DNA of 64,000 bases, from positions 34,967-98,966 of the forward strand of contig CAZXTN010000001.1 in the NCBI GenBank assembly GCA_964643685.1, given 5' to 3'. A model generated the notes under the pieces. That model did no database searches. It saw nothing but the letters and a program-made list of their open reading frames with translations, and was not told the DNA's origin. Origin of the DNA: Candidatus Micrarchaeota archaeon (GTDB lineage: Archaea > B1Sed10-29 > JAJRYS01). Position numbers and translations under genes: made by a program. Positions 25,992 to 59,376 of the stretch are shown piece by piece (within the stretch, counting starts at the first letter, position 1; each line of letters begins with the position of its first letter).

Positions 25992-25994
25992 AAA

Positions 25995-30241: not shown

Positions 30242-30267
30242 ATACTTGTTTTGAATTACATGAAATC

Positions 30268-38772: not shown

Positions 38773-38822
38773 GAAAAGAAATACTTCAGTTTTTTATACT
38801 CCTTGTTCTTTACTCTAATTTA

Positions 38823-39380: not shown

Positions 39381-39387
39381 ATTTAAA

Positions 39388-40890: not shown

Positions 40891-40962
40891 AGAAAAAAAA
40901 GATAAACCTAAACAAAAACAAACGCCCTAAAAGAAAAAAAAAGACACAAGTTAATAACAAAA

Positions 40963-41106: not shown

Positions 41107-41187
41107 AAACAAATCACTTCAAGTAATAACAAAAGAAAAACAAGTATAAAAACCTTTAACAAAAACAAAAAAAAGAAAAAGAAGGAT

Positions 41188-41664
41188 TTAACTCATAGAG
41201 GCATCAGGACCGATACCTACTATACAATCTTTATTTTCATCACATGTAGCTTTAATAACTGTTTTAAAAGTGCTTGAGATAGCAACAGTATCTCCAGAAG
41301 CTGAACATCCTCCAAGTGCTGCATCACAACTAAATTTAACACTTCCTGTTCCTCCTAAAATATCTTTAAAAGAATTGCTTGAATACACAACACCTGGCTT
41401 GAAGCTTGCTTCAGTTTGGCTTACAAAAGTAGAACCAGGGTACTGAACTGCCTGCTGCAATTGCCCTTTAATCATAGTAGCTGGGTCTTGTCCAGGCAAG
41501 CTGATTCCCCCGAGAATAGCTAATAAAATTCCAAGAATAGCAACTGCTACTACAGCTGCAATCATTAATTTAAAAGTATCAAATGCTTGTCCTCTCATCA
41601 TACAAAAAACCACCTCTTTAAGATTAATTAAAAAAAAGAAACAAAAGTATAAAAAGCTTTTCAC
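41188..41664 (-). CDS. Type IV pilin-like protein with class III (RGQ) signal peptide
   Basis: 'MMRGQ/AFDTFKLMIAAVVAVAILGILLAILGGISL'. Confidence 0.55.
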   Translation of the reverse strand: MKSFLYFCFFFLINLKEVVFCMMRGQAFDTFKLMIAAVVAVAILGILLAILGGISLPGQDPATMIKGQLQQAVQYPGSTFVSQTEASFKPGVVYSSNSFKDILGGTGSVKFSCDAALGGCSASGDTVAISSTFKTVIKATCDENKDCIVGIGPDASMS

Positions 41665-41686
41665 GCAAAAAGTTAATCAAATAATT

Positions 41687-42097
41687 TTACGAAGAACAGG
41701 ATTCACCTAAGTAAACATTGCAAAGAGAATGAGAAGAACAAGTTACACTTACAGGAGTGCTTAATTTCCTAGGGAAACTGCAAGAACTACCACTGCAAAT
41801 ACGAGGATGAAAAGCATCATCATGAAAAGAAACACTTACTCCAATACTTGACTGGTAATAATTTTTTTCAATTAAAGCATGCTTGTCAAAGCAAATTGTT
41901 CTTTCAAAGCACTTGTCAGGGGCCCTTGACGCCTGCAGGACAAGAGTTTCAAGTTCTTTAAAACCAGGCGAAGGGCAGGTAATGTTAGAAGTTGCTTGGT
42001 AAATCAAGCCAAGCAAAGCCATTGCAAAAGCCAGGCCAATGAGCATTTTGAAGACAGTGAACGCTTGCCCCTTGTTATTAATTAATTTTAATTTCAT
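41687..42097 (-). CDS. Type IV pilin-like protein with class III (KGQ) signal peptide
   Basis: 'MKLKLINNKGQ/AFTVFKMLIGLAFAMALLGLIYQ'. Start overlaps the FlaJ stop (ATGA). Confidence 0.55.
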   Translation of the reverse strand: MKLKLINNKGQAFTVFKMLIGLAFAMALLGLIYQATSNITCPSPGFKELETLVLQASRAPDKCFERTICFDKHALIEKNYYQSSIGVSVSFHDDAFHPRICSGSSCSFPRKLSTPVSVTCSSHSLCNVYLGESCSS

Positions 42098-44175: not shown

Positions 44176-46417
44176 TTTGCCTCCTCCTCTGCACTAGTCT
44201 TTCAACCTGCTCTTTTAAAACCCATTCTTTCCAGTCTTTTTTCGCCTGCTCCCAGTCAACAAAACCCTGCGCTTGCCTCTGGTCTTCTAAAATAAGCAGC
44301 CACTTGTCATTAGCAGGCACTGTGAATTCAGCTTCAAGCAGCTGCGGAATGTTGTATTTTCTTTTCATTTCAACTAAGAAGTTCTTGGTTTCAGCGCGTG
44401 CATGAATGTCATCCCATAAGTCACTGACTTTCAAACCACGTTTTTTTGCTATGCGTGGGAACAATTCAGAACGCTTCAACTCCTCTTGGTTTATGTAATG
44501 AGTGTCTTTTTCAGCGTCAAATTGAAGAATGTTAATAAGCCCTCCTTCTTTTTCAGGGTCCTCGTACCAGTGTTTTCCAATTTCAGTTATTTCAACTAGC
44601 CTCCTGTTTCTTTTAAGAGAACCTTTGAATCTCACTGGAGCTGAAGTGACTACTACGTCAGTTGCTTTGAATGAGGTGTTAGGCACTCCCAAGTCATTTA
44701 CTATCCTGTCCCATACTGAGTAAGCGTTTTCACCGTGAATTGTTCCCATTACAACGTTTCCAACAGCACCTACTCTCATTGCTTCATACAAAACTTGGGC
44801 TTCTTTTGAACGCACTTCTCCTACTATCAATACAGAGTCACCGAGACGCAAAGCAGTTCTTAATGCTTCTTCAGGTGGCACTTCTGCGCTTGTTCTTGAA
44901 ACACTTATTGCTGACTGCGTTTTCAGCCTTTGAATGTTGTAACCTAGTTTTTTCATGTAAGGCACTGGAATTTCAAGAGTGTCTTCTTGTACAATTATTC
45001 TCGCTGATGGCAGTATTTCCAGCATTAAAGCCATGAGCATTGAAGTCTTACCAGCTCCCCTAGAGCCGTTGACTAGAGTTGATGCCTGCGCGTCTATTAG
45101 GAAAGACAGCAAGCCAGCTGCAAGTGGATTAACCATTTTAACGTCAATGAATTGAGGCAGAGTCCAAGGCGTCTGCTTGTGTAATCTTAAAGCAAGTGCT
45201 ATGCCGTCAGGGGATAAAGGAGGACCTATTACAGCTACTCTTGTTTGAAGAGCGTTTAAGTCCAAGTCCATTACTGGATGCGCTTCGTCAAAAGGCCTTC
45301 CTGAAAGCGAACGGAATCTTGAGATTATTCCCTTTGCTTCTTGTTCAGTGAAAAGCACGTTTGTCTGGCAGCTGCCATATTCTCCATGCACGACGTAAAC
45401 TGGTTTTGTGCCGAGAGGAGCGTCCATGTAAACGTCTGTGAGCTTCCTGTCTCTTAAAAGCAGTTCCATCATGCCGTAGCCGACAGTGTAACGGGTTACT
45501 ATTTTAGCTAATTGCTGTGTTTCTTTTCCTGTTATTATTATTTTGTTTTTCTGAGCTAAGTCAGAGATTGTTCTTTCGTAAATTTTAGCAAAGTAGTTTC
45601 TGATGTCTTCTGGTGTCATGAACCTGATTCCTTTCGGGCGGTAGGATGAAACAAGTTCTCTTGTCTTGGTTAGCAGGAAGTATTTTTCAGGGGACAAGTT
45701 GAATTCAGGTGGGTTGATGTAGTAGAGGAATTGTATTTTTTCAGGGTGCTTGTAAATGTTGACAGTCGCGTCTTCAACTATGTATTGGTCAACTAGTTCC
45801 ACGTTTGCAGGAGTGTGGAAAAAGACATTTGAAGATACAAACGCCGGTTTTATTTGAACTTGAAACAAGGAGTGGTAAATTGCTCTTCCTTTCGGCACTT
45901 TTCCAAGTTTTTTAAGAATAAGCTTTACTTTTTTAATCAAGGTTGTTCTTTCAAAAGCGTTGTACATGAAAGCAAGGGTTCTTAAGAAGCCGTCGTCTCC
46001 TCCTGAAGCTATTCTCTGCTTTTCTTTCTTGATTAATTCAACTAACTGCAAGTAAGCTTGAATAGGGTCTGTTCTAAGAAGCTCCTGTGCTATCATTAAA
46101 ACTTGCTGATTTCTTTCTTTAAGCACTTCTTCGCTCGCTTTTCCAAGACGGGATGGAGTCCACACTCCTTCTCTTAAGAACAAGTCATATAATTCAGCTA
46201 TTTCTTTAATCATTTTTGTCTGTTTTTCATCGTAAATGTTTTCATAAACATCTGACAAGACAATTATGTCAGGATCAGTTTTGCCTGCTTTTTCAATGAC
46301 TTCGCTCATCACTGAAGGAAAATCAGCTATGCTTGCAGAAGCTCCTTCGCCTCTGTAATCTATTATTAAATACCTCTTTCCCCCTTCTACTTTTATGGTG
46401 TAATCATGCCCAGACAT
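44129..46417 (-). CDS. FlaI/TadA/VirB11-like pilus secretion ATPase with Arg/Lys/Glu-rich C-terminal extension (762 aa)
   Basis: Walker A 'LVNGSRGAGKTSMLMAL', Asp box 'RIIVQEDTLEIP', 'VLIVGEVRSKEAQVLYEAMRVGAVGNVVMGTIHG'. Confidence 0.8.
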   Translation of the reverse strand: MSGHDYTIKVEGGKRYLIIDYRGEGASASIADFPSVMSEVIEKAGKTDPDIIVLSDVYENIYDEKQTKMIKEIAELYDLFLREGVWTPSRLGKASEEVLKERNQQVLMIAQELLRTDPIQAYLQLVELIKKEKQRIASGGDDGFLRTLAFMYNAFERTTLIKKVKLILKKLGKVPKGRAIYHSLFQVQIKPAFVSSNVFFHTPANVELVDQYIVEDATVNIYKHPEKIQFLYYINPPEFNLSPEKYFLLTKTRELVSSYRPKGIRFMTPEDIRNYFAKIYERTISDLAQKNKIIITGKETQQLAKIVTRYTVGYGMMELLLRDRKLTDVYMDAPLGTKPVYVVHGEYGSCQTNVLFTEQEAKGIISRFRSLSGRPFDEAHPVMDLDLNALQTRVAVIGPPLSPDGIALALRLHKQTPWTLPQFIDVKMVNPLAAGLLSFLIDAQASTLVNGSRGAGKTSMLMALMLEILPSARIIVQEDTLEIPVPYMKKLGYNIQRLKTQSAISVSRTSAEVPPEEALRTALRLGDSVLIVGEVRSKEAQVLYEAMRVGAVGNVVMGTIHGENAYSVWDRIVNDLGVPNTSFKATDVVVTSAPVRFKGSLKRNRRLVEITEIGKHWYEDPEKEGGLINILQFDAEKDTHYINQEELKRSELFPRIAKKRGLKVSDLWDDIHARAETKNFLVEMKRKYNIPQLLEAEFTVPANDKWLLILEDQRQAQGFVDWEQAKKDWKEWVLKEQVERLVQRRRQIEAIKQKKIAAARRR

Positions 46418-46978
46418 AAAACCACTGCATTCAAAAAACAGTTGAAAACTGCCTTGATATTCATACTAAGCATAAGTGCTTTTTATACCTTATTCTGGTT
46501 AATTTTAAAAAATTTGAATCTGTACCCATTGAAAAAAGCGACTGCAATAGCAGCTTATAAAATGCTTGAATTAATTGGAGTTAAAGCAGGTTTGGTTTTA
46601 ACAGCAGAGCCTTCAATAACAGTTGGGAAAGTGACTGCGCAGATAACTAACTTATGCGCAGGAGACTTAGAAATAGCTTTGATTACAGCTATTATTTTGT
46701 CAACTTTTGACAGGACATGGAAAAACAGGGCTTGGGGAGTCTTGTTTGCATGGCTTTTAATTTTAATTATCAACCCATTGAGGATATTTGCTGTGCTTGC
46801 TGTCGGTTACTATACTTCCTGGCAGTGGGCTGACTTCACTCATGACGTGCTGTTCAGGCTGACTTTGCTTGTCGTGATAGTTTTTTATTACTTCATTTGG
46901 TATGTAAAAAATGAAAAAATAAAGAAAAAGGTATTGAAATGGGCAGAGAAAAAGGGTTTTCATTATTCACTCCATTAA
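46406..46978 (+). CDS. Small polytopic membrane protein, possible exosortase/archaeosortase-family core
   Basis: 'NLCAGDLEIALITAIIL' resembles the exosortase 'CSG' region. 'NPLRIFAVLA' resembles the conserved N..R motif. Lacks the two-Asp pattern of prepilin peptidases. Confidence 0.35.
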   Translation: MPRHKTTAFKKQLKTALIFILSISAFYTLFWLILKNLNLYPLKKATAIAAYKMLELIGVKAGLVLTAEPSITVGKVTAQITNLCAGDLEIALITAIILSTFDRTWKNRAWGVLFAWLLILIINPLRIFAVLAVGYYTSWQWADFTHDVLFRLTLLVVIVFYYFIWYVKNEKIKKKVLKWAEKKGFHYSLH

Positions 46979-47907
46979 TCGGAACTACAATAATAGTAAT
47001 AGCAGCTGTAGTAAGCGCCATGATGCTTCAAAATGACGTGAGGATAAGCAGGGCTTTGTCAGATAGCTTCGAGCAAGCAAACCAGCAGAATGCAGCCAAG
47101 CTAGTTAAAGCAACTGCTGAAGTGACAATAAGAAAAGGAGTTGAACAGGGATTCAAAAAAACACTGGAAAAAGGCATAACAATTAATTATGAAAGTAGCA
47201 GCATTGAAGATTCTTTCAAGCAAGCAATTGAAAAAGGGATAAAGGATTACTTATCAACTGACTTATACAGCAATATGCTTGATGAAATTTCAACAAGCAC
47301 TGGATACGACGCTCAACACATTGATTGCACTGATTACGGCGGAGAAGCTGACAGCACGCCTGAAAATTGCCTTGCAAAAGGAATAAGCCACACTTCAATC
47401 ACTCTTGTAGACGACTCCTCTAATGGAAACAGGTACATGGCAGAGTTTGACATAGACAGGGACTATGAAGGAGCTTATGCTGTCCGTTTCAAAAACTCTG
47501 AAAACCAGTTTGTTATTCTTTCTTTAGAGCCTGATACAAGCGAAAGCTACCCAATTGCAATTGACGCTAAAACAATGATAGGAAACGTCAAGCAAATCAA
47601 GCAAAAGCTCGCTGTGAAAGGAGATGAAAGTTATAGGAATTTGCTTACAGGATTAAGGGACGGCGGTTTTTTCAGTGGAGTAAAGGAAGTTGACATTTAC
47701 AAAAAAGAAGGCTCAGATAAGAGGTTAATACAAATTATTTTCAAAGGAACAGAATGGGGGTTAGAGAAGGACTTTGTAATTAACTTAAAACCAAATGGAG
47801 ACAGAACTGATTACCATGTTCCTGAATGCAAATGGGATGAATCAAATGGAGTGCCAAGCTTATCAAGCTTAGATCCAAATGCTATTTTATGGAATGAATG
47901 TGATTAG
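46939..47907 (+). CDS. Pilin-like/secreted protein (322 aa)
   Basis: 'MGREKG/FSLFTPLIGTTIIVIAAVVSAMMLQ' is a class III-like N-terminus. Confidence 0.4.
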   Translation: MGREKGFSLFTPLIGTTIIVIAAVVSAMMLQNDVRISRALSDSFEQANQQNAAKLVKATAEVTIRKGVEQGFKKTLEKGITINYESSSIEDSFKQAIEKGIKDYLSTDLYSNMLDEISTSTGYDAQHIDCTDYGGEADSTPENCLAKGISHTSITLVDDSSNGNRYMAEFDIDRDYEGAYAVRFKNSENQFVILSLEPDTSESYPIAIDAKTMIGNVKQIKQKLAVKGDESYRNLLTGLRDGGFFSGVKEVDIYKKEGSDKRLIQIIFKGTEWGLEKDFVINLKPNGDRTDYHVPECKWDESNGVPSLSSLDPNAILWNECD

Positions 47908-47989
47908 TTTTAAATAAAAATACTGATTGATTAATTAAATTAAAAGCATTGAAGAAGTTTTTAAAAAAAGCAAAGGAGGAGTTTTGAAA

Positions 47990-50900
47990 ATGAATTTAAA
48001 AGAAATTTATTTGAAAATTGAAGACAAGTGGTTTGACTTGCTTGATTCTCTTGATGAAAAAGGAGTGCCTGTTTACAAGGCAGTGGATCCTCTTGAAAAA
48101 AAAGGCATACCTACCTTGCCTGTTTTCATAGCTCTTCTTCTTGCTTTTACTTTCTTAATAACTTCTCCTATGACTTCTTCTCCTTCAATGCTTAAAATAA
48201 CAGTAATTAACCAAGAAGGACAGCCACTGGCAAATGCCAATATTACTTTGCTTGATTCACAGTTAAACCAAGTTGCTTCGCTTCAAACAGACGCGTCAGG
48301 GCAAGTTGAATTGAATTTGAAAAAAGGAACTTATTACAGCAACATAAGAGCAGAGGACTGCGACAGCGCCATTAATGAAGAAATTTACTTCGTGTCAAAC
48401 ATGCAGGAAAAAGAAATTGAGTTAACATGCCAAGGGGTTTCACTTGCTGGAAATCAAAGCAGTTTCTGCTTCAATCCATCTGAAGTAGGGGATGTTGAAG
48501 TTAAAAAATACCATTTAGGAGTTGAAGCAAGCAGTGAAGACTGCGGAACTGACGAATGCGTTTTTTCCCCTGAACCTGGAAACACTTACATTTTTTCAAC
48601 GCCTGATTACGTGTCAAGGCAATTGACTTACGTTAACTTGATGAATTACTTAAACAGCGAAGAATGCATTGACATGGATGAAAGGATAACTGTCCCTGAA
48701 AACCCTCAGCCTGTTTTAGTTGAAGTTAAAAACAGCGACGGGAACCTGCTTTCATTTGCAACAGTCCAGCTAGTTAACCCGAATGACACAAGCGTTGCAT
48801 TGTATGAAAAAATGACAAGCGAGAATGGAACAGCTCTTTTCAAAGTAGAGCTTGGAACTGTTTTCAAAGTAAAAGTAAGCGGAACAGAAGAAACCCTAAC
48901 TTACATTGATTCAAAAGCTTATGAAACGCCATTAGGAGGGCTTAACGTAAGCGTAAAAGTAGATTTAAGCGCGTCAAGCCACATTAAAATTTACGAAAAA
49001 ACAGAACTTGGAAAAGTAGATTCAAAAAACACGCAAGTAACAGTCATAGACAAAGAATTAAAGCAAATTGTGGCAAGCAAGCAGACAAATTCAACAGGAG
49101 AAGTCGTGCTTGGTGTGGAAAAGAACAAGGAGTACAAGCTTGCAATATGGAAAAAAGGATTTAATTACACTGAAACTGAATTGACAGGAGGAGAAGATAA
49201 GGAGATAACTCTCCATCCTGTTCTTGAAAACCAAGTTGGAGCAATAAGAGTAAAAGTAATGCTTGAAGATGAAAAATTAGGAGGAGCAACAGTGCATTTG
49301 AAAACAAGCGACGGAATGCCAACAGGAATATTCGCTCCTCCAACAAGATCAAACGGTTACACTTCATTCAGTAACGTGCCTGCAGGAAGCTACTGCCTCA
49401 CAGTAAGCAGGAAGATAGGAAAAGAAAGCGACTGCGAAGCAGTTACAGTAACAGCAGGTGAAACAAGCGATGTTGAAATAAAACTTGAAAAAAGAAAGTA
49501 TCAAGTGACAGTAAAGGTAACAGATGAAAGCGGAAGCCCAATAGACGAAGCAAGCGTAAAATTAATTGATGAAAAAGGAGAAGAAGTATGCAGCAGCACA
49601 AGCGAGTTGTTTGAAGGAGAATTTACATGCGACGTCAAAGAAGCAACTAAAATAAAAGCAACTGCAAGATATGAAGATAATGGAAAAATATACTCTGCTT
49701 CTGCTTATCTTGGAAAAATAGAGCAACCAGTAGAACAAAAACTAGTTTTAAGAGAGCTTACAACAGATGTGAAAATAATTGGAATAAAAGCACCTGATGG
49801 AACAGAATTAAATTTAGGTTCAGATAAGATTAAAGCAGGGGTAACAGGTTACAAGGCGATAGTGTCAATTGGATTGCCTAATTACTCTGATTCAAAATGG
49901 AGCAATGTTGAATTCACTATAAACGAAGACACAGGGACATTCGAGTTCTACTCAGGACAAGATGACTACTTCGAAGCCTCAAGCACTGATGAAAAAGCAA
50001 GCACAAGAACATTCAATTTAAAAGCATCTAAAAAAGACTATGAAATAGGAAATCATCAGCTTGAAATTCCATTCAGAGTAAAAACAATAAACGCTGAAAC
50101 AGGAGAATATGAATTAAAAATTTCAGGAAAATGGGAAGCACCTAACGGCGATTCATTCAATTATCCTCCAGGAGATGAAGAGGAAAAATTAAAAGTTAAT
50201 GTGACAGCCGAGCAATGCGAGCAAGTTGGAGACTTCAGCGTATGCTATTCAATACAGCAAGGGGAGAATTGGGTCAACCCAGTTGCACAAGGAAGCCTTT
50301 CTTTTGAAACAGGAGACAAGATAAACATTTCAATGAAGATAACAAACGAAGGAAGCGATTTCAAAGGAGAAATTCAAGTAAATGATGATTACTATAAAGG
50401 CAGCTTGTTCTCAGAAGTAAGCTCAATAAAAAAGCAAGGAAGCAGCCAAAACCTGATGCTAGGAAGAGATTATCAATTAAACAACTATGCTTTAAGCATA
50501 GAGGAAAACCCTAACACAGAGCTTAAAAACGGAGAAACAATGCTTTTAAACTTTTCATTAAAAGCAATAAAGCCAGATGCAACTCAGCTTACAGTGAAAA
50601 TAGGAAGCGGGGAACAAGCTCTTCCTTTGATAATAATAACAGGTGAACAAGATGCAAGACTTGTTATTGACAGTGACATTTATGACTTAAGCAATAACAT
50701 CAGCTTCCATTTAGAATCAGTTGACGGAAGCAAAGTGCCAATAGGAGAGTATTACGGTTCAGGTTCCTGCGTGAAAGGATTATCAGGCTCTGACATCTGC
50801 CTTACTTCAACAAATTACCAGCTAGGGTTAATTAGTTTAGATTATGAAAACAATGAAGTGACAGTGACATTAACAGCAGACAATAACTTAGTGGGCATGA

Positions 50901-53900
50901 ACAAAGTGCATTTTTCAATAACAGGAACTAGGATAAAAGACATTGATGAATACAAGGATGTTGAATCATGCATTCAAGACGTTACAATCTACCCTATAAT
51001 TGCTTATCAAACAGTTCCATGCAGCATTTACTTGAAAACAGGAGAAGCTTCAAGATTTGAATCAAAAAACAACCCAGACAGCACTGGCTTAGCTGCATGC
51101 ACAACTGAAACTTACCCTTCTTCAAGCGATTCTCAAAACAGTCCTTACCAAATTATTTTCGGAAGCAAATGCGGAGCTGAAATAAAGGATATCAAGTACA
51201 TAATAAACCCAGAGCAAGAGGACAACTTCAATCCAGGAATACTCACAGACCACTTCAACGAAGCAGCAGACTTATACTTTGATTACACACCTCCTTTCTC
51301 AGAAGGAACAGTATCAAACCAAGATATTTACAGACAAATCAACTTAACCATCACATTTTCAAATGGAGAAGTTGAGAAAAAACTAAAACTCGCGCTGCCA
51401 TTAACTTTAATAAACCAGGACATAAGCGCTTTCAATGAAAACAGCATATTCCATGCATTTAAAACAACAAGTTTGGACAACCCTGACTGCTCAACAAATT
51501 ACTGCACATTAGAACAATTTTTCAAGTCACTAACAGAAAAATTAAACGCAAACCAGCAGATAGGAACAATAACAGTTAATTTAATAGGAGCAAATGACAG
51601 GATAAACGAGATAGAATTAAAAGAGATAATTCAAAAAGCAACAGGAGCAGATGTTCACTCTGGAGAACCAAGCGAAGACGTAAGCACAGGAACTAGCCTT
51701 CAAATTTACGTACCTGATCAATTGCTAAGCAATTCCATAAGCGATGGAAAATACGCTTTTTCAATCATTAAAAAAGCAGACAACATTTACGAAATAACAG
51801 GAGTAAGAGCAATAACCCAAATCAAAACAGGAGACATTGACAAAATCGAGTCACACTTAACTTACTCAAAAACAGATTATACAGACATCATAGATAATAA
51901 GATGAAAACAGGATGGAAAATAAAAACAGAAGGAACAAGCTTAACAGACACAAAAAAACAAGAAATAAACAATCACTTCAAAAGTGTTTTAAGAGCAATG
52001 TATGAAGATGAGGACAACTTGAATGAAGATGGAACAGTTTCAGGAAGCCTTACAATAAACAATCAGGGAAGCGAAGCTAGGAACCAAGTGACTCTTGGAA
52101 TCTGCAACACTTCAGATGATTCATTCGAAACTAACAAAAAAGACATCACTACTTTATGCGGAAAATACTTCCTTTACTCAGGAGAATCAGCTGACTACAG
52201 TGGAATAATATTTGAAGAAACAGTAGGAGGAAAAGGAGTTTACTTCATAGCAACTAATGAAACAAACTTAATCACTTTACTGGACAATTACAAGAAAGCA
52301 ATAATAAACACAAGAATAGGAGGAGTAACAGGAGGAAGTTCCTTAAAAATTTACAAAGGAGAAGCATGCTCTAACGGAGAAGAAGTAGGAAGTGACAATT
52401 GCGACGTGCAGTTTGAATCTAAGATACTAGCAAGAGCTCCTTCAACAATACATGTTTACTGCGGAGGAAGCATAACATGTAACCTCGATGACACAAGTGA
52501 CGAGCTAACAAAAGCATTGAAAGAATACGGAGCAAAGGCAATTGGTTACGGAGAAGCTGAAATAAACCTAATTGAAGAAACAAACAAAGATGATGCTGAC
52601 GTGATTATAACAACAAGAGACTCTGATGAATTTGAAGCATTGCAAAATAACTTCAGAGCAGTTGAAGGAATTCCAACAACCATTGAATTGCCTGACAATT
52701 ACACTTTCACTGACATCAAAGGAGCAAAAGTAGTCATAGCTGAAAATGCAGAAGACGCTGCAAAAGTGCTTGAAAACAACGGAGCTCCATTGCAGTTGAC
52801 AATGCAAGAACTTGACTCTGCATTAAAACAAGCAATTTCAGACATAAGCAGCAGCGAAGATGAAGACAGCACAGAAGCAGTTACAAGAACAATGTTTGTA
52901 AATATTACAGACGCAAGCTGCTACATTGACTTACAAAGCAGTTTAGAAGATGAAAAAGCAGGGTTAAAGATAATAAAGGGAGGGTTAAATAAGGATTACT
53001 TTGGAGAGGATTCTTTCAAAGAAAACTCAGAAAACTGTAACTGGGTAACTAGCAGCGACATAAACTTACTTCCAGCAGAGTATTTGATTGAAATAACAAA
53101 TAGTTTTACAGATTGCAATGCAAATAAGGATTATCTTATTTATGCTTATCCATTAACAAGAAAGTATGATAACTTACTAAAAGAAAATGGTTATGACGTG
53201 TCAAAAGAAACTGACTTATGCGGAGCAGACATTATAATGCCAACAACAAAACCAACTTCAATAACTCTTGCAGAACTAGTGCAAAAAATTTGGGGGGTTG
53301 AAATAGATGAGAACACTCCGCTTCCTTACAATTTAGGCACTTTTTATATAACTGATGAAAAATTAAAAATAATTGATAATGATGACCCAGAATTGAATAC
53401 TGGAGCACTCATTGGACTAACTGACTGGTACAAAGAAGCTGCTTGGAATGATGAACCTTTAGCTAAAAGTCCAATATGCAATCTTGGGCCAGGTGGCCAG
53501 GATGAGGGAGACATAGGCACAGAAAAAGGAGGAAATTGGGAAGTAATCTCTTGGAATGATGGAAATGAAATTCATAAAACTAATCCTGAAATTCTGGAAA
53601 AAAGTTATTGTATTAACTTGTGGCCAGAAGACAATCCTAGCCCTGCTAAAAAAGGAGACATTGTCACTATCCAAATATTGGCTGATTGGCATTTAGCACA
53701 AGGAAGATTAAATACAAGGCATAAAACTCAAGTAAGAAATGTCTTTATATCAGATATCTCAAATGTTTGCCCTGAAGGTTATGATTTCAAGCCAGCTGAA
53801 TTAGGACAAACAGGAGGAGTATGCATAAAAGAAGCTTCAGGAAGCAATTCAGAAAAATCAAGAGAGTATGTTGCTGCAAGTGGAACAATTTGCAGAACAA

Positions 53901-54136
53901 GTTCTGCATTTAATGAGTGTAAGGATGCAAGCAATTTGGATGTAACAGATTACAATCCAGAAAATTGTGGCACTTCTAAAGAAATAACAACTTTAACCAC
54001 AATTACCAACTACTACCATTGCCCATCTAATTACATTTGCACTGAAGAAGCTAATTATATTGGAGGAGGGATATGCTGTCCTAATGACCATCCTAATTAT
54101 GATCCAACAACAGAACAATGTTACTCTGAAAGTTAA
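47990..54136 (+). CDS. Giant (about 2050 aa) surface protein with multiple CarboxypepD_reg/Ig-like beta-sandwich repeats and Cys-rich C-terminus
   Basis: Repeats such as 'ITVINQEGQPLANANITLLD...TDASGQVEL', 'VLVEVKNSDGNLLSFATVQLVNPND', 'IRVKVMLEDEKLGGATVHLKTSDG...GSYCLTVS' and 'VTVKVTDESGSPIDEASVKLIDEKGE'. N-terminal 'KKG/IPTLPVFIALLLAFTFLI'. C-terminal 'CPSNYICTEE...GICCPNDHP'. ATG 47990 preferred over TTG 47984. 'aggagga' lies 10 nt upstream. Confidence 0.6.
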   Translation: MNLKEIYLKIEDKWFDLLDSLDEKGVPVYKAVDPLEKKGIPTLPVFIALLLAFTFLITSPMTSSPSMLKITVINQEGQPLANANITLLDSQLNQVASLQTDASGQVELNLKKGTYYSNIRAEDCDSAINEEIYFVSNMQEKEIELTCQGVSLAGNQSSFCFNPSEVGDVEVKKYHLGVEASSEDCGTDECVFSPEPGNTYIFSTPDYVSRQLTYVNLMNYLNSEECIDMDERITVPENPQPVLVEVKNSDGNLLSFATVQLVNPNDTSVALYEKMTSENGTALFKVELGTVFKVKVSGTEETLTYIDSKAYETPLGGLNVSVKVDLSASSHIKIYEKTELGKVDSKNTQVTVIDKELKQIVASKQTNSTGEVVLGVEKNKEYKLAIWKKGFNYTETELTGGEDKEITLHPVLENQVGAIRVKVMLEDEKLGGATVHLKTSDGMPTGIFAPPTRSNGYTSFSNVPAGSYCLTVSRKIGKESDCEAVTVTAGETSDVEIKLEKRKYQVTVKVTDESGSPIDEASVKLIDEKGEEVCSSTSELFEGEFTCDVKEATKIKATARYEDNGKIYSASAYLGKIEQPVEQKLVLRELTTDVKIIGIKAPDGTELNLGSDKIKAGVTGYKAIVSIGLPNYSDSKWSNVEFTINEDTGTFEFYSGQDDYFEASSTDEKASTRTFNLKASKKDYEIGNHQLEIPFRVKTINAETGEYELKISGKWEAPNGDSFNYPPGDEEEKLKVNVTAEQCEQVGDFSVCYSIQQGENWVNPVAQGSLSFETGDKINISMKITNEGSDFKGEIQVNDDYYKGSLFSEVSSIKKQGSSQNLMLGRDYQLNNYALSIEENPNTELKNGETMLLNFSLKAIKPDATQLTVKIGSGEQALPLIIITGEQDARLVIDSDIYDLSNNISFHLESVDGSKVPIGEYYGSGSCVKGLSGSDICLTSTNYQLGLISLDYENNEVTVTLTADNNLVGMNKVHFSITGTRIKDIDEYKDVESCIQDVTIYPIIAYQTVPCSIYLKTGEASRFESKNNPDSTGLAACTTETYPSSSDSQNSPYQIIFGSKCGAEIKDIKYIINPEQEDNFNPGILTDHFNEAADLYFDYTPPFSEGTVSNQDIYRQINLTITFSNGEVEKKLKLALPLTLINQDISAFNENSIFHAFKTTSLDNPDCSTNYCTLEQFFKSLTEKLNANQQIGTITVNLIGANDRINEIELKEIIQKATGADVHSGEPSEDVSTGTSLQIYVPDQLLSNSISDGKYAFSIIKKADNIYEITGVRAITQIKTGDIDKIESHLTYSKTDYTDIIDNKMKTGWKIKTEGTSLTDTKKQEINNHFKSVLRAMYEDEDNLNEDGTVSGSLTINNQGSEARNQVTLGICNTSDDSFETNKKDITTLCGKYFLYSGESADYSGIIFEETVGGKGVYFIATNETNLITLLDNYKKAIINTRIGGVTGGSSLKIYKGEACSNGEEVGSDNCDVQFESKILARAPSTIHVYCGGSITCNLDDTSDELTKALKEYGAKAIGYGEAEINLIEETNKDDADVIITTRDSDEFEALQNNFRAVEGIPTTIELPDNYTFTDIKGAKVVIAENAEDAAKVLENNGAPLQLTMQELDSALKQAISDISSSEDEDSTEAVTRTMFVNITDASCYIDLQSSLEDEKAGLKIIKGGLNKDYFGEDSFKENSENCNWVTSSDINLLPAEYLIEITNSFTDCNANKDYLIYAYPLTRKYDNLLKENGYDVSKETDLCGADIIMPTTKPTSITLAELVQKIWGVEIDENTPLPYNLGTFYITDEKLKIIDNDDPELNTGALIGLTDWYKEAAWNDEPLAKSPICNLGPGGQDEGDIGTEKGGNWEVISWNDGNEIHKTNPEILEKSYCINLWPEDNPSPAKKGDIVTIQILADWHLAQGRLNTRHKTQVRNVFISDISNVCPEGYDFKPAELGQTGGVCIKEASGSNSEKSREYVAASGTICRTSSAFNECKDASNLDVTDYNPENCGTSKEITTLTTITNYYHCPSNYICTEEANYIGGGICCPNDHPNYDPTTEQCYSES

Positions 54137-54145
54137 CCCTCTCCT

Positions 54146-54166
54146 TATTTCTTTTCTTTTTTTTCC
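54146..54166 (+). terminator. Oligo-T tract downstream of the giant gene (archaeal-type terminator candidate)
   Basis: 'tatttcttttcttttttttcc' begins 10 nt after the stop codon at 54134-54136. Confidence 0.4.
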
Positions 54167-54216
54167 TTAATGTTTTTATATCTTGTTTGTTTTTGTTTTA
54201 ATTAGAAATTAGAGGC

Positions 54217-54639
54217 TTGTTGAAAATGTTTGTTTTAGGTTTGTTTGATTCCATGTTTAATGCAATGGGCGTTGGGCAAGACTTTAACTTGCTGATGCTT
54301 GGTTTTAAAATTGTTATTCTGCTTTACATTATTCAGTTTTTTAAAAACAGGTTCGGTGAATCGCCAGTAGTTACTTTGCTAGTGGCTGGAGTGGCTTACT
54401 TGTTCCTGTTCACAAGTTATTTCAAAATATTCGGGCCAATGATGTTTGTTTACTTGTTTGTGATATTTGGCTTTACTTCAATTTTGTTTGACTTGGCTAT
54501 TGCAAAGCCGTGGAAAAGCATGGATATGCATGGTGAAATGGAAGCAGGGGAAGAAGAAGGAGGGCATGGTGTTCATCACAGTTTTAAAGAAGCTCAGCAT
54601 CAGCAGCATAGTTTAAGGAAAATGAGAGCAAGGTATTGA
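54217..54639 (+). CDS. Small polytopic membrane protein with His/Glu-rich C-terminal tail
   Basis: 3-4 TM helices, tail 'HGEMEAGEEEGGHGVHHSFKEAQHQQH'. Confidence 0.45.
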   Translation: MLKMFVLGLFDSMFNAMGVGQDFNLLMLGFKIVILLYIIQFFKNRFGESPVVTLLVAGVAYLFLFTSYFKIFGPMMFVYLFVIFGFTSILFDLAIAKPWKSMDMHGEMEAGEEEGGHGVHHSFKEAQHQQHSLRKMRARY

Positions 54640-54646
54640 AAGGTGT

Positions 54647-54991
54647 TTGAAAGAAATGAAGTTGAAAGCAGTTGAAAAGAGGGGTTTTTTGAATACGAAT
54701 TTTTTAACCATTATCCTCGTGTTTGTTTTGATAATGCTTTTGCCTATTGTGTTTTCAGTTAGTTTTCCTATTATCAAGCTTATTATTATGGCTTATTTTG
54801 CTTTGCTTATCTTTATTTTTGTCAGGAATATTCTTGGAAATTCTATTCTTACTTATGTTATCAGCGGTTTGTTGATTTACATTTTAGTTGTTAAGTTCTG
54901 GTACTTGTTTGCGCCTGCTTACATGCTTTATTTGATTGGAAGCATGTTTTTAAGCGGTTTGATAATCTTTGGTTTACAAAAAGGACCGTAA
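54647..54991 (+). CDS. Small polytopic membrane protein
   Basis: Hydrophobic ORF. 'EKRG/FLNTNFLTIILVFVLIML' N-terminus. Confidence 0.4.
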   Translation: MKEMKLKAVEKRGFLNTNFLTIILVFVLIMLLPIVFSVSFPIIKLIIMAYFALLIFIFVRNILGNSILTYVISGLLIYILVVKFWYLFAPAYMLYLIGSMFLSGLIIFGLQKGP

Positions 54992-55090
54992 AGTCAATTT
55001 AATAAGCTTAGAAGCAGGGTGTTTTGCAGGGAGTGTAGTTATTTTAGTTTTCAATAAAGCTTAAAAACAAGGAGTTGTTTAATTAAAAAC

Positions 55091-55315
55091 ATGGGTTTGC
55101 TTTGGAGCGATGTTAGAATTGCTTTAATGATAATTGTTTTTATTTATTTGTTGCAGTGGACTGTTGATTTTACTAAGTCTAAGGCTTTGGGTTTGATTTT
55201 AGCTTCTGTTATTGCTTATTTGACTTTTTATCAGCATTATGAAATTTTGGTGTTTATTTTGGTTTTCTTTTTCGGTTATCCTTTTTTTGAAAAATTGGCA
55301 GAGGGTTTTGATTAA
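55091..55315 (+). CDS. Small (74 aa) two-TM membrane protein
   Basis: ORF only. Stop is 2 nt before the next start. Confidence 0.35.
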   Translation: MGLLWSDVRIALMIIVFIYLLQWTVDFTKSKALGLILASVIAYLTFYQHYEILVFILVFFFGYPFFEKLAEGFD

Positions 55316-55317
55316 TT

Positions 55318-55617
55318 ATGGATACTTTTACGACTGTTGTGATGTTGTTGATTGCTTTCATGGCTTGGAGCATGGGTTTTGATTACATTTTTTTAGGCTT
55401 AGCTGCTTTTACTATTTTGTTGAGTCACAGTTGGGGCATGGCTAGTATTTTGATTTTGGGAATTGGCGCTGTTTATTTGTTTGGCTTGAAGGAGTATTGG
55501 TTTGTTTTGTTTATTATTATAATTGCTTTTGTTTTGATTAAGAATGAGAAGCAGGGGAGTAATGCTGGAGGGGGAAGTTATTCGCCTGAGTTGATGAACT
55601 TGCTTGGCGGTTATTGA
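55318..55617 (+). CDS. Small (99 aa) multi-TM membrane protein with Gly-rich tail
   Basis: ORF only. 'GSNAGGGSYSPELMNLLGGY' C-terminus. Confidence 0.4.
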   Translation: MDTFTTVVMLLIAFMAWSMGFDYIFLGLAAFTILLSHSWGMASILILGIGAVYLFGLKEYWFVLFIIIIAFVLIKNEKQGSNAGGGSYSPELMNLLGGY

Positions 55618-55639
55618 TTTAAAAAATTGGGTTTTTTGA

Positions 55640-55972
55640 ATGGCAAGTGATTCGCAGTTGTTTATTGGTTTTTTAGTTGTTGTTTTGCTTGGTTTTGTTT
55701 ACAATCAAATTTGGCTGAGTTTTGTAATTGGAGCTGTGTTGTTTTTAATGTTGTTTTTACAGGAGGAGCCTGTGAAAAAAAGTTCTTCTTCTAGTGTGAT
55801 TGTCAGGCCTATTAAAGTTCAGAGGAAGTATGAGGAAGGTGCTTCGATTTACCCTAAGAAGATGGAGATTCATTTAGCTGAAAGAGGCCCTCCTAAAGCT
55901 TGGGAGAGGGGGCCTGAGCCTATTGGAAAGGCAGTTGGTAAGGGTTTGAAGTGGTTGTTTAATCATTTTTGA
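55640..55972 (+). CDS. Two-TM small membrane protein, paralog family member (YPxKM and C-terminal GKG-L motifs)
   Basis: '...IYPKKMEIHL...IGKAVGKGLKWLFNHF'. Confidence 0.45.
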   Translation: MASDSQLFIGFLVVVLLGFVYNQIWLSFVIGAVLFLMLFLQEEPVKKSSSSSVIVRPIKVQRKYEEGASIYPKKMEIHLAERGPPKAWERGPEPIGKAVGKGLKWLFNHF

Positions 55973-56023
55973 AGGTGTTTTGGCATTTGAAATGGAAAAA
56001 GCCTTGTTTTTTTAAAGTTTGAA

Positions 56024-56377
56024 TTGCTTAATATAAAGTTGATGGACAGTAGAAGTATTGTTTTGATACTCGCTTTGGTTATTTTTTCTTATTACTTAGG
56101 CTTGAATTGGCTTGTGTTGCTGTTGTCAATTGTATTGTTTTTAATTGGGCTTGGTTCTGTTAAGAGAAGTTCAGGTGAAGTTAAGAAAGAAGTTAACAAG
56201 AACCCTGATGTGATTTATCCTGTGATTTACGAGGATGTTGGAGAGCCTCCTTTGCTTTATCCTGAAAAAATGGGGGTTAAAATTTACGATGCTTCTAAGA
56301 AGACAAGTGCTTTGGAAGATGCTTTAAGGGGCATTGGTTCAGGAGCAAAGGCTTTGATTAAATTTTTAACAAAGTGA
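56024..56377 (+). CDS. Two-TM small membrane protein, paralog family member
   Basis: '...LYPEKMGVKIY...GIGSGAKALIKFLTK'. Confidence 0.45.
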   Translation: MLNIKLMDSRSIVLILALVIFSYYLGLNWLVLLLSIVLFLIGLGSVKRSSGEVKKEVNKNPDVIYPVIYEDVGEPPLLYPEKMGVKIYDASKKTSALEDALRGIGSGAKALIKFLTK

Positions 56378-56390
56378 ATGAAAGAGTTGA

Positions 56391-56738
56391 GTGAAAATGA
56401 ATTCAAGGACAGTTTTGTTAGTGAGTTTAATTGCAGGTGTTGCTGTTTATTCTTCAATGCCTTCAATTGGATTCTTGATAATTGTGTTTAGTTTGATTGG
56501 CTTGCTTGCAACTGTTTTTTCAAAAAAGCAGGAGGCGAAGAGCGGAAGCAGTTATAAGATGGGTGAGGAGATTGTTATTGAGTCAACAAAGCAGCTTCCT
56601 TACAGGATTCCATCTAAAATGAATTTGACTTACTCTCCTAATTCAAAGCAAAGGAAGCCGTGGTGGACTAAAGTTACAAGCAAGGGCATTTTGCCTAATG
56701 TTGCTAAAGGCATTGGAAAGTTGTTGAAAGAGTTGTGA
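56391..56738 (+). CDS. Two-TM small membrane protein, paralog family member
   Basis: '...RIPSKMNLTY...VAKGIGKLLKEL'. Confidence 0.45.
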   Translation: MKMNSRTVLLVSLIAGVAVYSSMPSIGFLIIVFSLIGLLATVFSKKQEAKSGSSYKMGEEIVIESTKQLPYRIPSKMNLTYSPNSKQRKPWWTKVTSKGILPNVAKGIGKLLKEL

Positions 56739-56759
56739 GAGAACTATTTTTTTAAGTGG

Positions 56760-57272
56760 TTGCTGATGAGAAGTTTGCTTATTGGACTTGTGCTTGTTTT
56801 AGTAGGTTGGGTTACTGGAAGCAGTGTTCTTGTTTTTTTAGGTGTTGTTTTGACAGCTGTTGTTGTTTTTCTTGAAAAAGAAGAGAAAGTTGTTTATGAG
56901 TATGTGGATAACAAGCCGAAGCATGTTGTTATTCAATCAAAGCCAGTTGAAACCAAGGCTCCTCTTCCAAATGAAGTGCTTTCGCCTGTTGGCAGGGCTA
57001 TTTATGACAAGGAAGTTAAGCCGTTGGAGGATAAGGTTAAGAAGTTGAGAGTGGATTCTCTTGTTGCAAAAGGAGAAGTAAAGGAGAAGCTGTTGAAAGA
57101 GTTGAAGGATGCTGAGAAGGAGTATGAGGAGAAATTAAATAAAGTGTCTGCTCTTCCTTTCGGAGTTAGGAAAGAGGCTTCTAATCCTGTTTACAGTTTG
57201 TTTAAGGGAATTGGAATAAACTTGAGTGTTAAGATTGTTTCTAAGTTGTTTGATAAGAAAGACAAGAAGTAG
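56760..57272 (+). CDS. Two-TM membrane protein with longer tail, distant paralog family member
   Basis: C-terminal '...SLFKGIGINLSVKIVSKLFDKKDKK' shares the G-I-G/K...L motif. Confidence 0.4.
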   Translation: MLMRSLLIGLVLVLVGWVTGSSVLVFLGVVLTAVVVFLEKEEKVVYEYVDNKPKHVVIQSKPVETKAPLPNEVLSPVGRAIYDKEVKPLEDKVKKLRVDSLVAKGEVKEKLLKELKDAEKEYEEKLNKVSALPFGVRKEASNPVYSLFKGIGINLSVKIVSKLFDKKDKK

Positions 57273-57282
57273 GAGAGTTTTT

Positions 57283-57858
57283 TTATTTTTTTTCAAGTTT
57301 TAAGAGCATTTTTTTGTTTATTTCAATTAACTGCTGCTGCAGGTCAGCCATGCCTTTGATTAATGGCTTGAGTTCAATAAGCATTTCTTTGACTTCTCTT
57401 ATTTCGCTTTTAAGGAAGGAAGTTTCGTTTAAGTTTTTTTCAATTTCTTCGTGTTTAGTGTGCAGGGTGTTTATTTTTTGATTTATTGTTTCAAGTGTCT
57501 GCGCGTGTTGTGAAAATTTGTCATTCAGGGAATTTAAGGAAGAGGAGTGTTCAGTTACTTTTCCGTGTATTTCATTGACTTCTTGTTTTATGCCTTTTGT
57601 TTCTTCAGTTGCTTTTTTAACTTCTTCAACTGCTGGGTTAAAAGCGCTTCCGCTTAGCACGACTTCGTGGACGTCATTAACTTTTTCATGAATGTCTTTC
57701 AAGTTAGGCTGAGCTGATACAGAGCCGATGAGCTCGTCTACCTCAAGTGAAGATAAGCCTATTGCTGTTAAGGTGCTTTTGATTTCTGCTGTTGAGCTTC
57801 CTTCTTTTTTCATTGATTTTATTATGTTTAAAATCTTGTTTTTCTTATCCTCGTCCAT
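57283..57858 (-). CDS. Coiled-coil hypothetical protein
   Basis: Heptad-rich, E/K/N/L-rich, no motifs. Confidence 0.4.
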   Translation of the reverse strand: MDEDKKNKILNIIKSMKKEGSSTAEIKSTLTAIGLSSLEVDELIGSVSAQPNLKDIHEKVNDVHEVVLSGSAFNPAVEEVKKATEETKGIKQEVNEIHGKVTEHSSSLNSLNDKFSQHAQTLETINQKINTLHTKHEEIEKNLNETSFLKSEIREVKEMLIELKPLIKGMADLQQQLIEINKKMLLKLEKK

Positions 57859-57915
57859 TATTCATAGTTAAAAACATTTAAGTTTAAATACCCATCCTAT
57901 GTAAATTAACAAATA

Positions 57916-59376
57916 ATGGAGTTAATCAGGGGCCCTTGGAAAAATTTATTCAAAGGCAATTGGGATGGTTATGAAATAGAGGTTAAGGAGAATCCTGAAA
58001 AGGAGATTCTTACTTTGATTTATGAAAAAGAAAAGGCAGGGGCAGTGAGTTTAGTAACTAGGTTTTATCACGTTCAGGGAAATGCGCATAGGTTAACTGA
58101 AGAGTTTAAAAATTACTCAACTATCATTGAAAAGCAGTTTCCAACTCATAAGACTGTTTTTTTCAGCATATCTTCTGGCCCAAGTTACAGTTCGCTTGAA
58201 CTCTTAAATCAGGTTGTTGAAGAGCAGTTTAAAAAAATAGAGGCAGAAGCAGAGGATTTGAATGAAAAAACAAGACTTTTTTCCCTGACTTTGACTGAAT
58301 TGAAAAGAGCAGGCAAGGATGTTCAAAGAGAGTTGCTGTCAGATCCTCTTTTAATGACTTCTCTGATAACAGGAGAGGGAAAAGGAGTAGAGCCTGTAAG
58401 GGCAAGCGTAAAAGTTCCTCTTGGAAAAACGCTTGAAGGAGTGGAGAAGGAAGAGGATATTAATTCTTTCTTAAGCACTTTAATTATAGGAAATGAAGTT
58501 GAAGTTGAAAAAGCAGTGCATGTTATTCTTGAAAACGCGGTGCTTGCTGGAAAAATAGGCATAGTGTTTGATTATGACGGAAGTTTTTCAAAAATGAATT
58601 ACCCTAACAGGAATTTTGATTACCAGAAAGAACAGCAGGTGCAACCAATCGGGCTTCCTATTAAGCATGCTGAGATAAGTGAACTTGGCATTGATTTGAA
58701 GCTGCTGGATAAGAAAATGCTTGCTGAAATTTTTTCAATTGACTCTGAAGGTTTCATAGCAGAAGAAGCAAGGGAAGTGATGGCAACTGCTTTTGAAAAA
58801 AACAAGGAGGAGATTAATTCTCTTGAGGATCTTGAACAGAAAGTGATGATGACAAGCGATGAAACTAAAAAGTTTCATGTTTACAGGGCTGTGAGGTGGT
58901 TGAAGGTTCTTGGAAAAAAGTACCCTGGTTATTTCAAAGGAGAAACAAGTTACAGGAAATTCATACCTCCTTATTCCAAATCAATGGGTTCGATAATAAG
59001 AGTGAATGTAAGCGGAGAAAAGAGCATGGTAAAAAAAGCTCTTCTTTATTCTCTTGTAAAAACAATGGAAAAAGATTATGAAAAAACATTCTCTTCATTT
59101 CAATTGAAATCAATAGCATGCTTGGTTAAAGGAAAAGATTACTTTCCAACTGAGCCTGTGAAGGAAATTGAAAAAGAGTTGATTAAAACTTATTCAAAGG
59201 CTCTTGAAAAAGGAATTGGAGTGGCAGCTGGTTTTGAATCAGAAGCAGAAGCTAATGAATTCATGCTTGACACTGAAACAATCAGAATAAGCTTTATTTC
59301 GCAATCAGAAGCAGCTGTTAAGGAAAGGAACTCACGCCCTTACAGGATAAAATTAAGGCAGAACATGTCTTCTTGA
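57916..59376 (+). CDS. Hypothetical protein (486 aa)
   Basis: ORF only. No Walker or catalytic motifs recognised. Confidence 0.4.
   Translation: MELIRGPWKNLFKGNWDGYEIEVKENPEKEILTLIYEKEKAGAVSLVTRFYHVQGNAHRLTEEFKNYSTIIEKQFPTHKTVFFSISSGPSYSSLELLNQVVEEQFKKIEAEAEDLNEKTRLFSLTLTELKRAGKDVQRELLSDPLLMTSLITGEGKGVEPVRASVKVPLGKTLEGVEKEEDINSFLSTLIIGNEVEVEKAVHVILENAVLAGKIGIVFDYDGSFSKMNYPNRNFDYQKEQQVQPIGLPIKHAEISELGIDLKLLDKKMLAEIFSIDSEGFIAEEAREVMATAFEKNKEEINSLEDLEQKVMMTSDETKKFHVYRAVRWLKVLGKKYPGYFKGETSYRKFIPPYSKSMGSIIRVNVSGEKSMVKKALLYSLVKTMEKDYEKTFSSFQLKSIACLVKGKDYFPTEPVKEIEKELIKTYSKALEKGIGVAAGFESEAEANEFMLDTETIRISFISQSEAAVKERNSRPYRIKLRQNMSS

Follow-up and report, generated by a model that had tools for sequence, protein, structure and literature searches.

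Eight small membrane-protein genes in fixed order beside a giant surface-protein gene of a DPANN archaeal lineage

What is the role of eight consecutive genes for small membrane proteins that lie directly downstream of the gene for a giant surface protein? We addressed this question in a stretch of 64,000 nucleotides (nt) from a Candidatus Micrarchaeota archaeon (contig CAZXTN010000001.1 of assembly GCA_964643685.1, positions 34,967 to 98,966), which we refer to as the window. The eight genes are designated S1 to S8, and the surface protein of 2050 amino acids (aa) encoded upstream of them is called the giant. A preliminary description had read S1-S8 as including a locally amplified family and as an accessory set for the giant, with anchoring, chaperoning or holin-like function as examples. 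Here we find that S1-S8 are real, old genes of a single DPANN archaeal lineage and evolve under purifying selection, and that the earlier interpretation as a whole is partly supported. The locus may bear on how DPANN archaea attach to hosts and exchange material, organisms in which most lineage-specific membrane proteins are unannotated.

Eight conserved membrane-protein genes

Eight plus-strand open reading frames (ORFs) of 140, 114, 74, 99, 110, 117, 115 and 170 aa occupy positions 54217-57272 (Table 1), in agreement with the preliminary description apart from minor corrections. Slightly later starts, at 54226 (S1), ~54656 (S2), 56042 (S6), 56397 (S7) and 56766 (S8), are favoured by the genes called in public assemblies and by alignment of the orthologs. 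The spacers had been given as 2-50 nt; their actual range is 2-99 nt, with the S2-S3 gap at 99 nt. Hydrophobic helices open all eight proteins. The window is AT-rich (~36% GC), and searches of it with ARAGORN and Rfam found no tRNA and no RNA family. Over positions 54001-58000, the AT skew is negative (-0.25, -0.16) and the GC skew strongly positive (+0.34, +0.30), whereas the coding strand is A-rich elsewhere; the skews probably reflect codon use in T-rich genes for hydrophobic membrane proteins.

Related loci (numbered with the prefix L) were gathered via S7 homologs, a profile of the S5-S7 family, one genome scan and one metagenome scan. With hidden Markov models (HMMs) built for each position, S1-S8 were recovered in an identical order from all related loci of sufficient extent, close relatives included. 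The conserved order spans more than 25 non-identical archaeal loci from metagenomes or metagenome-assembled genomes, down to 44% identity of the neighbouring PolB protein. This limit is set by L050, the most divergent family member traced, in which the order S1-S8 is kept. The scan of the genome collection returned one locus only, labelled 'Candidatus Micrarchaeota archaeon', and the other members at NCBI are labelled only 'archaeon'. Five public contigs encode an identical S5 protein, and two of these contigs belong to the 0.2-1 Mb class. The exact sequence is carried by the sequencing runs SRR35108318 and SRR7051160.

The eight genes are under purifying selection. Compared with L009, the closest relative (PolB 86% identical), the ratio of nonsynonymous to synonymous substitution rates (dN/dS) is 0.06-0.19 for S1-S8 (0.11 for both S1 and S2), 0.04 for PolB and 0.44 for the giant, values that are rough because dS is near saturation. 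Orthologs of S1 were collected from 20 loci. In distant loci, S1-S3 retain 44-64% identity, similar to PolB, and S4-S8 retain 23-45%. S3 is the best conserved of the eight, with 95% identity to its counterpart in L009.

The preliminary description recognised no known family, and none was matched in curated databases. No S1-S8 match in Pfam-A or NCBIfam reaches the curated cutoff (best matches 10-15 bits, cutoffs 22-127), no PHROG match falls below E 0.02, and PADLOC gave no match for S1-S8. Profiles of S1, S2, S3, S4 and the S5-S7 family found chance-level matches only (E >0.2) among all PDB sequences. As far as sequence comparison goes, the S1-S8 families are new, strongly constrained and without a known family. 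No description of this cluster was found in the literature. Lineage-specific families of short, TM-rich archaeal 'hypothetical' membrane proteins (TM, transmembrane) without Pfam or KEGG annotation have been reported before, the present cluster not being described among them (Meheust et al., 2022; PMC9258230). S1-S8 resemble those families in being short, TM-rich and confined to one lineage, but differ in forming a fixed-order array of eight with internal paralogy and a constant partner gene. A paper on a Micrarchaeota S-layer protein concerns a different protein, which carries PF05123.

The size of the S5-S7 family depends strongly on the search method. A word-indexed search returned 5 and then 26 S5-S7 relatives, the latter among 5.8 billion clusters, and badly underestimated the family. 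Exhaustive HMMER searching of 1.84 billion representatives yielded 101 relatives at E <=1e-3, 43 of them at E <=1e-10. The relatives are 63-146 aa long, nearly all matched over most of their length, with one exception, P0111 (523 aa), which has five AKGVAKGVGKVAKGALKLLFRD repeats with acidic spacers and matches only the C-terminal amphipathic helix of the family. P0111 is probably unrelated, with a layout like that of a repeat-peptide precursor.

Table 1. Positions in the window of the array, the giant and the neighbouring genes
Feature	Positions	Strand	Description
S1	54217-54639	+	~137 aa from likely start 54226; three TM helices
S2	54647-54991	+	~106-114 aa; four TM helices; paralog of S1 core
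S3	55091-55315	+	74 aa; two or three TM helices; conserved C-terminal FFGYPFF
S4	55318-55617	+	99 aa; three TM helices; C-terminal YSPELMxLLGG nearly invariant
S5	55640-55972	+	110 aa; two-TM hairpin and basic tail
S6	56024-56377	+	111 aa from 56042; hairpin and tail; C-terminal amphipathic helix
S7	56391-56738	+	113 aa from 56397; hairpin and tail
S8	56760-57272	+	168 aa from 56766; hairpin and longer tail
Giant-S1 spacer	54137-54216	+	T8 tract; TATA-like TTTTTATAT; GAGG before ATG at 54226
Giant	47984-54136	+	N-terminally anchored surface protein, 2050 aa
Pilin-like protein	46939-47907	+	322 aa; type IV pilin-like (class III) N-terminus; position conserved
Sortase-like protein	46406-46978	+	short archaeosortase/exosortase-family membrane protein, 190 aa; first gene of plus-strand unit
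FlaI/TadA-like ATPase	44129-46417	-	762 aa; divergent from plus-strand unit
FlaJ/T2SSF-like platform	42094-44175	-	693 aa; pilin genes adjoin
cc191	57283-57858	-	191-aa coiled-coil protein; convergent with S8; orthologs carry Pfam DUF7121
p486	57916-59376	+	486-aa soluble protein; HerA/FtsK-superfamily predicted fold; degenerate Walker A and B

Paralogy, motifs and predicted topology

The last four genes had been proposed to form a paralog family. Within the window, an all-against-all BLASTP comparison gives no significant pair, the best being S6-S7 (E=0.03). BLASTP alone would thus have wrongly refuted paralogy, and profiles of the orthologs were needed. Such profiles were compared with hhalign in a shallow (4 sequences) and a deep (20-37 sequences) version. 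S5-S6 scored 94.8% with shallow and 98.7% with deep profiles (E 3e-16), S6-S7 96.1% and 97.9% (E 6e-13), and S5-S7 14.4%, which is not significant, and 95.8%. None of the pairs with S8 was significant with shallow profiles; with deep profiles, S5-S8 reached 95.6% (E 1e-8, 70 columns), S6-S8 80% and S7-S8 41%. Profiles restricted to the tails also scored above column shuffles (z ~9 for S5-S6, ~5 for S6-S7 and ~3 for S5-S7). The S5-S8 comparison has z=17.6 against shuffles, and with a reversed profile it falls to background. The paralogy therefore survives the tail-only, column-shuffle and reversal controls.

By these profile comparisons, S5, S6 and S7 are clear paralogs and S8 is a distant member of the family. 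The proposed family is robust for the first three; S8 joins it by deep profiles only, through the hairpin and the first motif at the start of the tail. The C-terminal motif, by which S8 had been tied to the others, does not carry this link. Throughout the clade, over the whole range of PolB identities, every paralog is represented by a separate line of orthologs, so the duplications predate the clade and do not represent local amplification. The copies are non-redundant, each line being retained.

S1 and S2 (54226-54991) form a second paralog pair, which was absent from the preliminary description. They have a common three-helix core that includes the loop FVRxxxGxG (60 columns, 93.9%, E 1.6e-7, z=12 against column shuffles), and a conserved Asp lies near the membrane boundary. 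Profile-profile comparison found no paralog of S3 or S4 in the array.

Each protein carries distinct conserved motifs. In S1, the sequence FxxRFGxxP is conserved in the predicted cytoplasmic loop, DLAIAKPW ends TM3 and the C-terminal tail is charged. S2 has the loop FVRxILGxG and the C-terminal sequence LSGIIIFGL. The tail of S5 contains VRPIxVxRKYxxxxSIYPxKMxI and ends with GKxxGKxLKWL, that of S6 contains the invariant motif YPVIYEDVGxPPxLY, and that of S7 contains IxIESTxxxPYxIP, with KGIGKLLKEL at the C-terminus. The tail of S8 starts with KHxVIxSxPP and ends with the conserved LFKGIGINLSxK. Among the S8 proteins compared (window 56760-57272, L012 2354-2698, L021 and L029), lengths range from 114 to 181 aa, and a coiled-coil insert rich in Lys and Glu is lineage-specific, present in the window and lacking in others.

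The C-terminal strings quoted in the preliminary description are present verbatim. Its YP-x-KM box, assigned to S5, S6 and S7, is exact in S5 (IYPKKM) and S6 (LYPEKM), and S7 reads IPSKM; the wider family retains only the Pro and the pattern around it. The core of the family consists, in this order, of a short N-terminus with one basic residue, the hairpin, a linker rich in Lys, Ser and Pro, the motif h-h-x-P-[VI]-[VI]-[VIY]-x-x-x-G-x-x-P-x-[LI]-Y-P-x-x-[MF]-x-[IV]-[KR], and a basic, amphipathic C-terminal helix with a conserved Gly.

In S5-S8, the loop of the hairpin consists of 1-5 uncharged residues, 2-5 Lys or Arg residues are found within 15 residues after TM2, and the tails are net positive. 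Because of this charge pattern, we infer from the positive-inside rule that both ends of S5-S8 are cytoplasmic. In S1, the N-terminus is predicted to lie outside, and the loop FVRxRFG and the C-terminal tail inside. In the AlphaFold2 (AF2) model of S6, the two-helix hairpin has a predicted local distance difference test (pLDDT) score >90, the tail is a coil (~60) and the last 20 residues form a helix (~75). Foldseek with this model found 0 matches in the PDB.

The giant surface protein and possible roles of the array

The giant consists of a cytoplasmic N-domain of ~45 aa, the sequence GIPxLPVF, a TM helix and a hypervariable ectodomain with CarboxypepD_reg/Ig-like domains, and its C-terminus is Cys-rich, soluble sequence. 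It is the fastest-evolving gene of the block, with 26-36% identity even where PolB is 86% identical and with C-termini that are unalignable. CarboxypepD_reg domains are found in the window and PKD domains in L050. The first ~62 residues (47984-48170), in contrast, are strongly conserved, with the consensus YYKIEDKWFDLLDWLExxxIPVYKxVDPLEKxGIPSLPVF followed by the TM helix. An HMM of this anchor matches these giants only and no other ORF in the window or any locus, and no Pfam model matches the N-domain region.

The end of the N-domain reads [KR/A]-G-I-P-[ST]-[LF]-P-[VI]-F right before the TM helix (window, L005, L007, L009, L017-L021, L027, L032, L041). With its K-G ahead of a hydrophobic run, this segment is similar to a class III (prepilin) cleavage site whose leader would be unusually long.

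In all related loci in which it was seen, a giant stands directly upstream of S1, and the 14 distinct giants found there were never separated from S1-S5. The linkage survives two rearrangements. In L007, the genes for a further coiled-coil protein (cc148), PolB and the M24 peptidase have moved away, and the block from the ATPase, sortase-like, pilin-like and giant genes through S1-S8 to cc191 and p486 is kept. In L022 (8573-14976), S6-S8 are followed by a radical SAM gene, a TlyA-like methyltransferase gene and then the convergent genes S5-S1 and the giant, which places S6-S8 ~2 kb from giant-S1-S5. The link to p486 breaks in both directions: neither cc191 nor p486 is near the array of L022, and within 21 kb of the distant p486 and coiled-coil pair in L048 there is neither an array nor a giant.

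This tight and persistent linkage bears out one part of the proposal that S1-S8 are an accessory set dedicated to the giant, for which the evidence is gene neighbourhood only; we retain it as the leading hypothesis. More specifically, we tentatively favour, at somewhat short of even chances, that S1-S8 form a hetero-oligomeric membrane complex that serves as insertion or holding base for the conserved N-terminal anchor of the giant. The eight proteins would assemble into one complex in the cytoplasmic membrane with roughly twenty TM helices, of which the four tails of S5-S8 would form the cytoplasmic face. The complex would receive, insert or hold the conserved cytoplasmic N-domain and membrane anchor of the giant, as an invariant membrane base beneath a rapidly diversifying ectodomain. 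The N-domain and TM helix are cited for this contact because they are the only conserved part of the giant and are located where the small proteins sit. Of the functions that had been suggested, chaperoning of the adhesin outside the cell is unlikely, since the S5-S8 tails are basic and predicted to be cytoplasmic.

Several observations weigh against a membrane base for the giant. The topology is read from the positive-inside rule only, and the AF2 pLDDT of the S6 tail is only ~60. The small proteins evolve slowly and the giant fast. Synteny in the clade also keeps unrelated housekeeping genes (PolB, M24 peptidase) to the same depth, which makes adjacency alone weak evidence. Finally, the gap of 81 nt between the giant and S1 contains a TATA-like element and the T8 run that confirms the oligo-T tract of the preliminary description, which means that the array may be transcribed as a separate unit. 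In archaea, oligo-T tracts signal termination. Further tracts are T7 in the S5-S6 spacer (55973-56041), exactly where the array of L022 is split, and T7AT8 after S8. Given these tracts, part of the transcription of the array may be independent, possibly in the two units S1-S5 and S6-S8. A scan for sigma-70 promoters and hairpin terminators found nothing above shuffles, such a scan not being meaningful for an archaeon.

The same signals between the giant and S1 would also fit an independent housekeeping membrane complex, such as a lineage-specific transporter, channel or envelope-biogenesis factor, whose adjacency to the giant is inherited gene order only. We regard this as possible, on the doubtful side. 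Gene order is conserved just as deeply for PolB and the M24 peptidase, for which no functional link to the array is evident, the evolutionary rates of array and giant are decoupled, and the S1/S2 core has its conserved loop and Asp near the membrane boundary. On the other hand, no transporter or channel family was detected by sequence, and the region does rearrange (L007, L022, L048), yet giant-S1-S5 stay together in all 14 distinct giants. A different partner would be the pair cc191 (DUF7121) and p486, for which the array could provide a membrane tether or adaptor. The S5-S8 tails would then dock on a HerA-like ring, as VirB3/TraL do with VirB4 or CedA1/A2 with CedB. p486 has a predicted HerA/VirB4/TrwB-like fold and lacks TM segments, S8 is followed in nearly all loci by cc191 and p486, which stayed with the array in L007, and S5-S8 have hairpins with predicted cytoplasmic tails. 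The S5 hairpin also has a sub-threshold match to TraL (TIGR02762, E 0.063), but at 13.9 bits against a cutoff of 30.95 and over the hydrophobic hairpin only. A search of the PDB with the family profile turned up no chain of VirB3 or TrwM at E <=10, Foldseek finds nothing with the S6 model, and Walker A and B are degenerate in the whole p486 family. Together with the separation of array and pair in L022 and L048, this leaves the tether doubtful.

The neighbouring type IV pilus-like machinery offers another partner: S1-S8 could be its accessory subunits, with the giant and the 322-aa pilin-like protein as cargo or tip; the small Bas proteins of the Sulfolobus bindosome would be a parallel. The FlaI/TadA-like ATPase, which has a weak match to BasE, is divergently adjacent to the plus-strand unit in the window and at the same position in six other loci (L007, L018, L019, L021, L027 and L032), the unit itself holds a protein with a pilin-like class III N-terminus, and pilin genes lie beside the platform gene. 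Against this, no class III signal peptide is found in S1-S8, and S5-S8, with two TM helices each, show no conserved Gly or Ala ahead of the hydrophobic run (G, A, T, S, N and V occur among the orthologs). No pilus or archaellum accessory family was matched in Pfam or NCBIfam, and two further T2SSE/T2SSF sets in the window lack such an array. We consider this role unlikely. We further speculate, with still more reserve, that the whole block (archaeosortase, pilin-like protein, giant, S1-S8, coiled-coil protein and pseudo-ATPase) could be an undescribed envelope-spanning organelle that serves host attachment or exchange and has a type IV pilus-like motor next to it. In it, S1-S4 would be the membrane core and the S5-S8 tails VirB3-like adaptors that couple the N-domain of the giant to the HerA-like ring. 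It is highly improbable that S1-S8 are holins, as the preliminary description had suggested, or toxins, or that they are left over from a virus or mobile element. Only small size, TM helices and charged tails point that way, and there is no phage context, no PHROG or PADLOC match, and no lysin, integrase or repeat boundary. Their position on the chromosome near PolB is fixed across a deep clade, and purifying selection is strong.

Three known systems resemble the locus, in each case by analogy of gene organisation only. In VirB3/TraL-VirB4 of bacterial type IV secretion and CedA1/CedA2-CedB of archaeal DNA import, as here, small hairpin membrane proteins are encoded beside a soluble protein of the HerA/FtsK superfamily in a cluster of small membrane-protein genes. 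The array differs from both in having four paralogous hairpins with tails of 60-130 residues, a HerA-like partner with degenerate Walker motifs that is not always adjacent, and no significant sequence or fold match. The bindosome (BasABC, BasE/BasF) and other archaeal type IV pilus-like assemblies share with the locus a FlaI-like ATPase and platform beside genes for surface proteins and small membrane proteins, and a pilin-like protein in the unit. BasABC are pilin-like proteins with a single helix and a class III signal peptide, whereas S1-S8 have 2-4 helices and lack the signal. In accessory Sec loci of Gram-positive bacteria, the gene for a giant serine-rich adhesin is followed by SecY2, Asp1-5 and SecA2. 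The likeness of a giant adhesin-like gene with a fixed accessory gene set after it is one of logic only: here no SecY, SecA or Asp homology was detected, the organism is an archaeon, and the accessory proteins are tiny and membrane-embedded.

No known family that we considered passes its defining tests for S1-S8. For VirB3/TraL, both the defining sequence match and a VirB4 partner with intact Walker motifs are absent. Pilins and class III signal proteins, defined by a short basic leader that ends in Gly or Ala, one hydrophobic helix and then an extracellular domain, were rejected for S5-S8 in view of the two-helix hairpin (AF2 model of S6), the tails rich in Lys and Arg, and the absence of a Class_IIIsignal match in Pfam. 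Substrates of archaeosortases or exosortases have a tripartite C-terminal signal, made up of a motif, a TM helix and a basic cluster, which S1-S8 lack; their TM helices are N-terminal and their C-termini soluble or amphipathic. PADLOC components of anti-phage defence systems (HerA-containing and others) were matched by neither S1-S8 nor p486, and holins or other phage lysis proteins were rejected for lack of an endolysin, phage context or viral-family match, the conserved context being free of phage genes.

The outer part of the giant diversifies quickly, as expected for host recognition, and its cytoplasmic anchor is fixed. If the link between array and giant holds, the array would be the invariant base of a variable attachment device, and YPVIYEDVGxPPxLY, YSPELMxLLGG and FFGYPFF would be markers for it in metagenomes. 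If the link is false, six unannotated, strongly constrained membrane-protein families (or families and singletons) would still be added to the archaeal catalogue.

Neighbouring genes and further observations

The AF2 model of p486 (pLDDT 74, predicted template modelling score 0.62) has Sulfolobus solfataricus HerA (4d2i) as its top Foldseek match (probability 1.00, E 2e-10), followed by VirB4 and TrwB among the top matches inspected. At the sequence level, no family was found: a p486 profile built from 6 sequences reached HerA in the PDB at E=0.14, and one from 15 sequences matched nothing. The predicted fold combines a HAS-barrel with a RecA-like domain and lacks canonical Walker A and B motifs. 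Instead of GxxxxGK[ST], the Walker A site is GNEVEVEKA in the window and GSRQDRKT in other members, and instead of hhhhDE, the Walker B site is LVKGKD or IVDGD. Because both positions are degenerate throughout the family, we read the modelled protein as a putative pseudo-ATPase. The p486 gene is always preceded by a divergent coiled-coil gene, even in L048; with PADLOC, cc191 gave coiled-coil noise only. Beyond p486 lie a second coiled-coil gene and the genes for PolB and the M24 peptidase.

Upstream of the giant, the 190-aa sortase-like protein matches Pfam Exosortase_EpsH (8e-10) and TIGR04178 (45.8 bits, cutoff 23), and its position is conserved. The N-terminus of the 322-aa protein reads MGREKGF|SLFTPLIGTTIIVIAAVV (KGF|SLFTPLIG), a pilin-like signal that was recognised by eye. 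The load of surface-filament genes in the window is unusually dense (16000-31000 and 38800-46417). Three ATPases of T2SSE type (17101-19095, 27302-29014 and 44129-46417), T2SSF-like genes (19108-20007 and 42094-44175) and many pilin-like ORFs with KGQ or RGQ leaders (38823-40890 and 41188-42097) are present.

An extra gene of 205-207 aa is found between S8 and the coiled-coil gene in L013 (3899-4516) and L050 (10881-11504), and is lacking in the window. The L050 protein, the only copy translated, is Cys-rich, with a signal-like helix at the N-terminus and a TM helix with a basic tail at the C-terminus, and could be a substrate of the archaeosortase-like protein.

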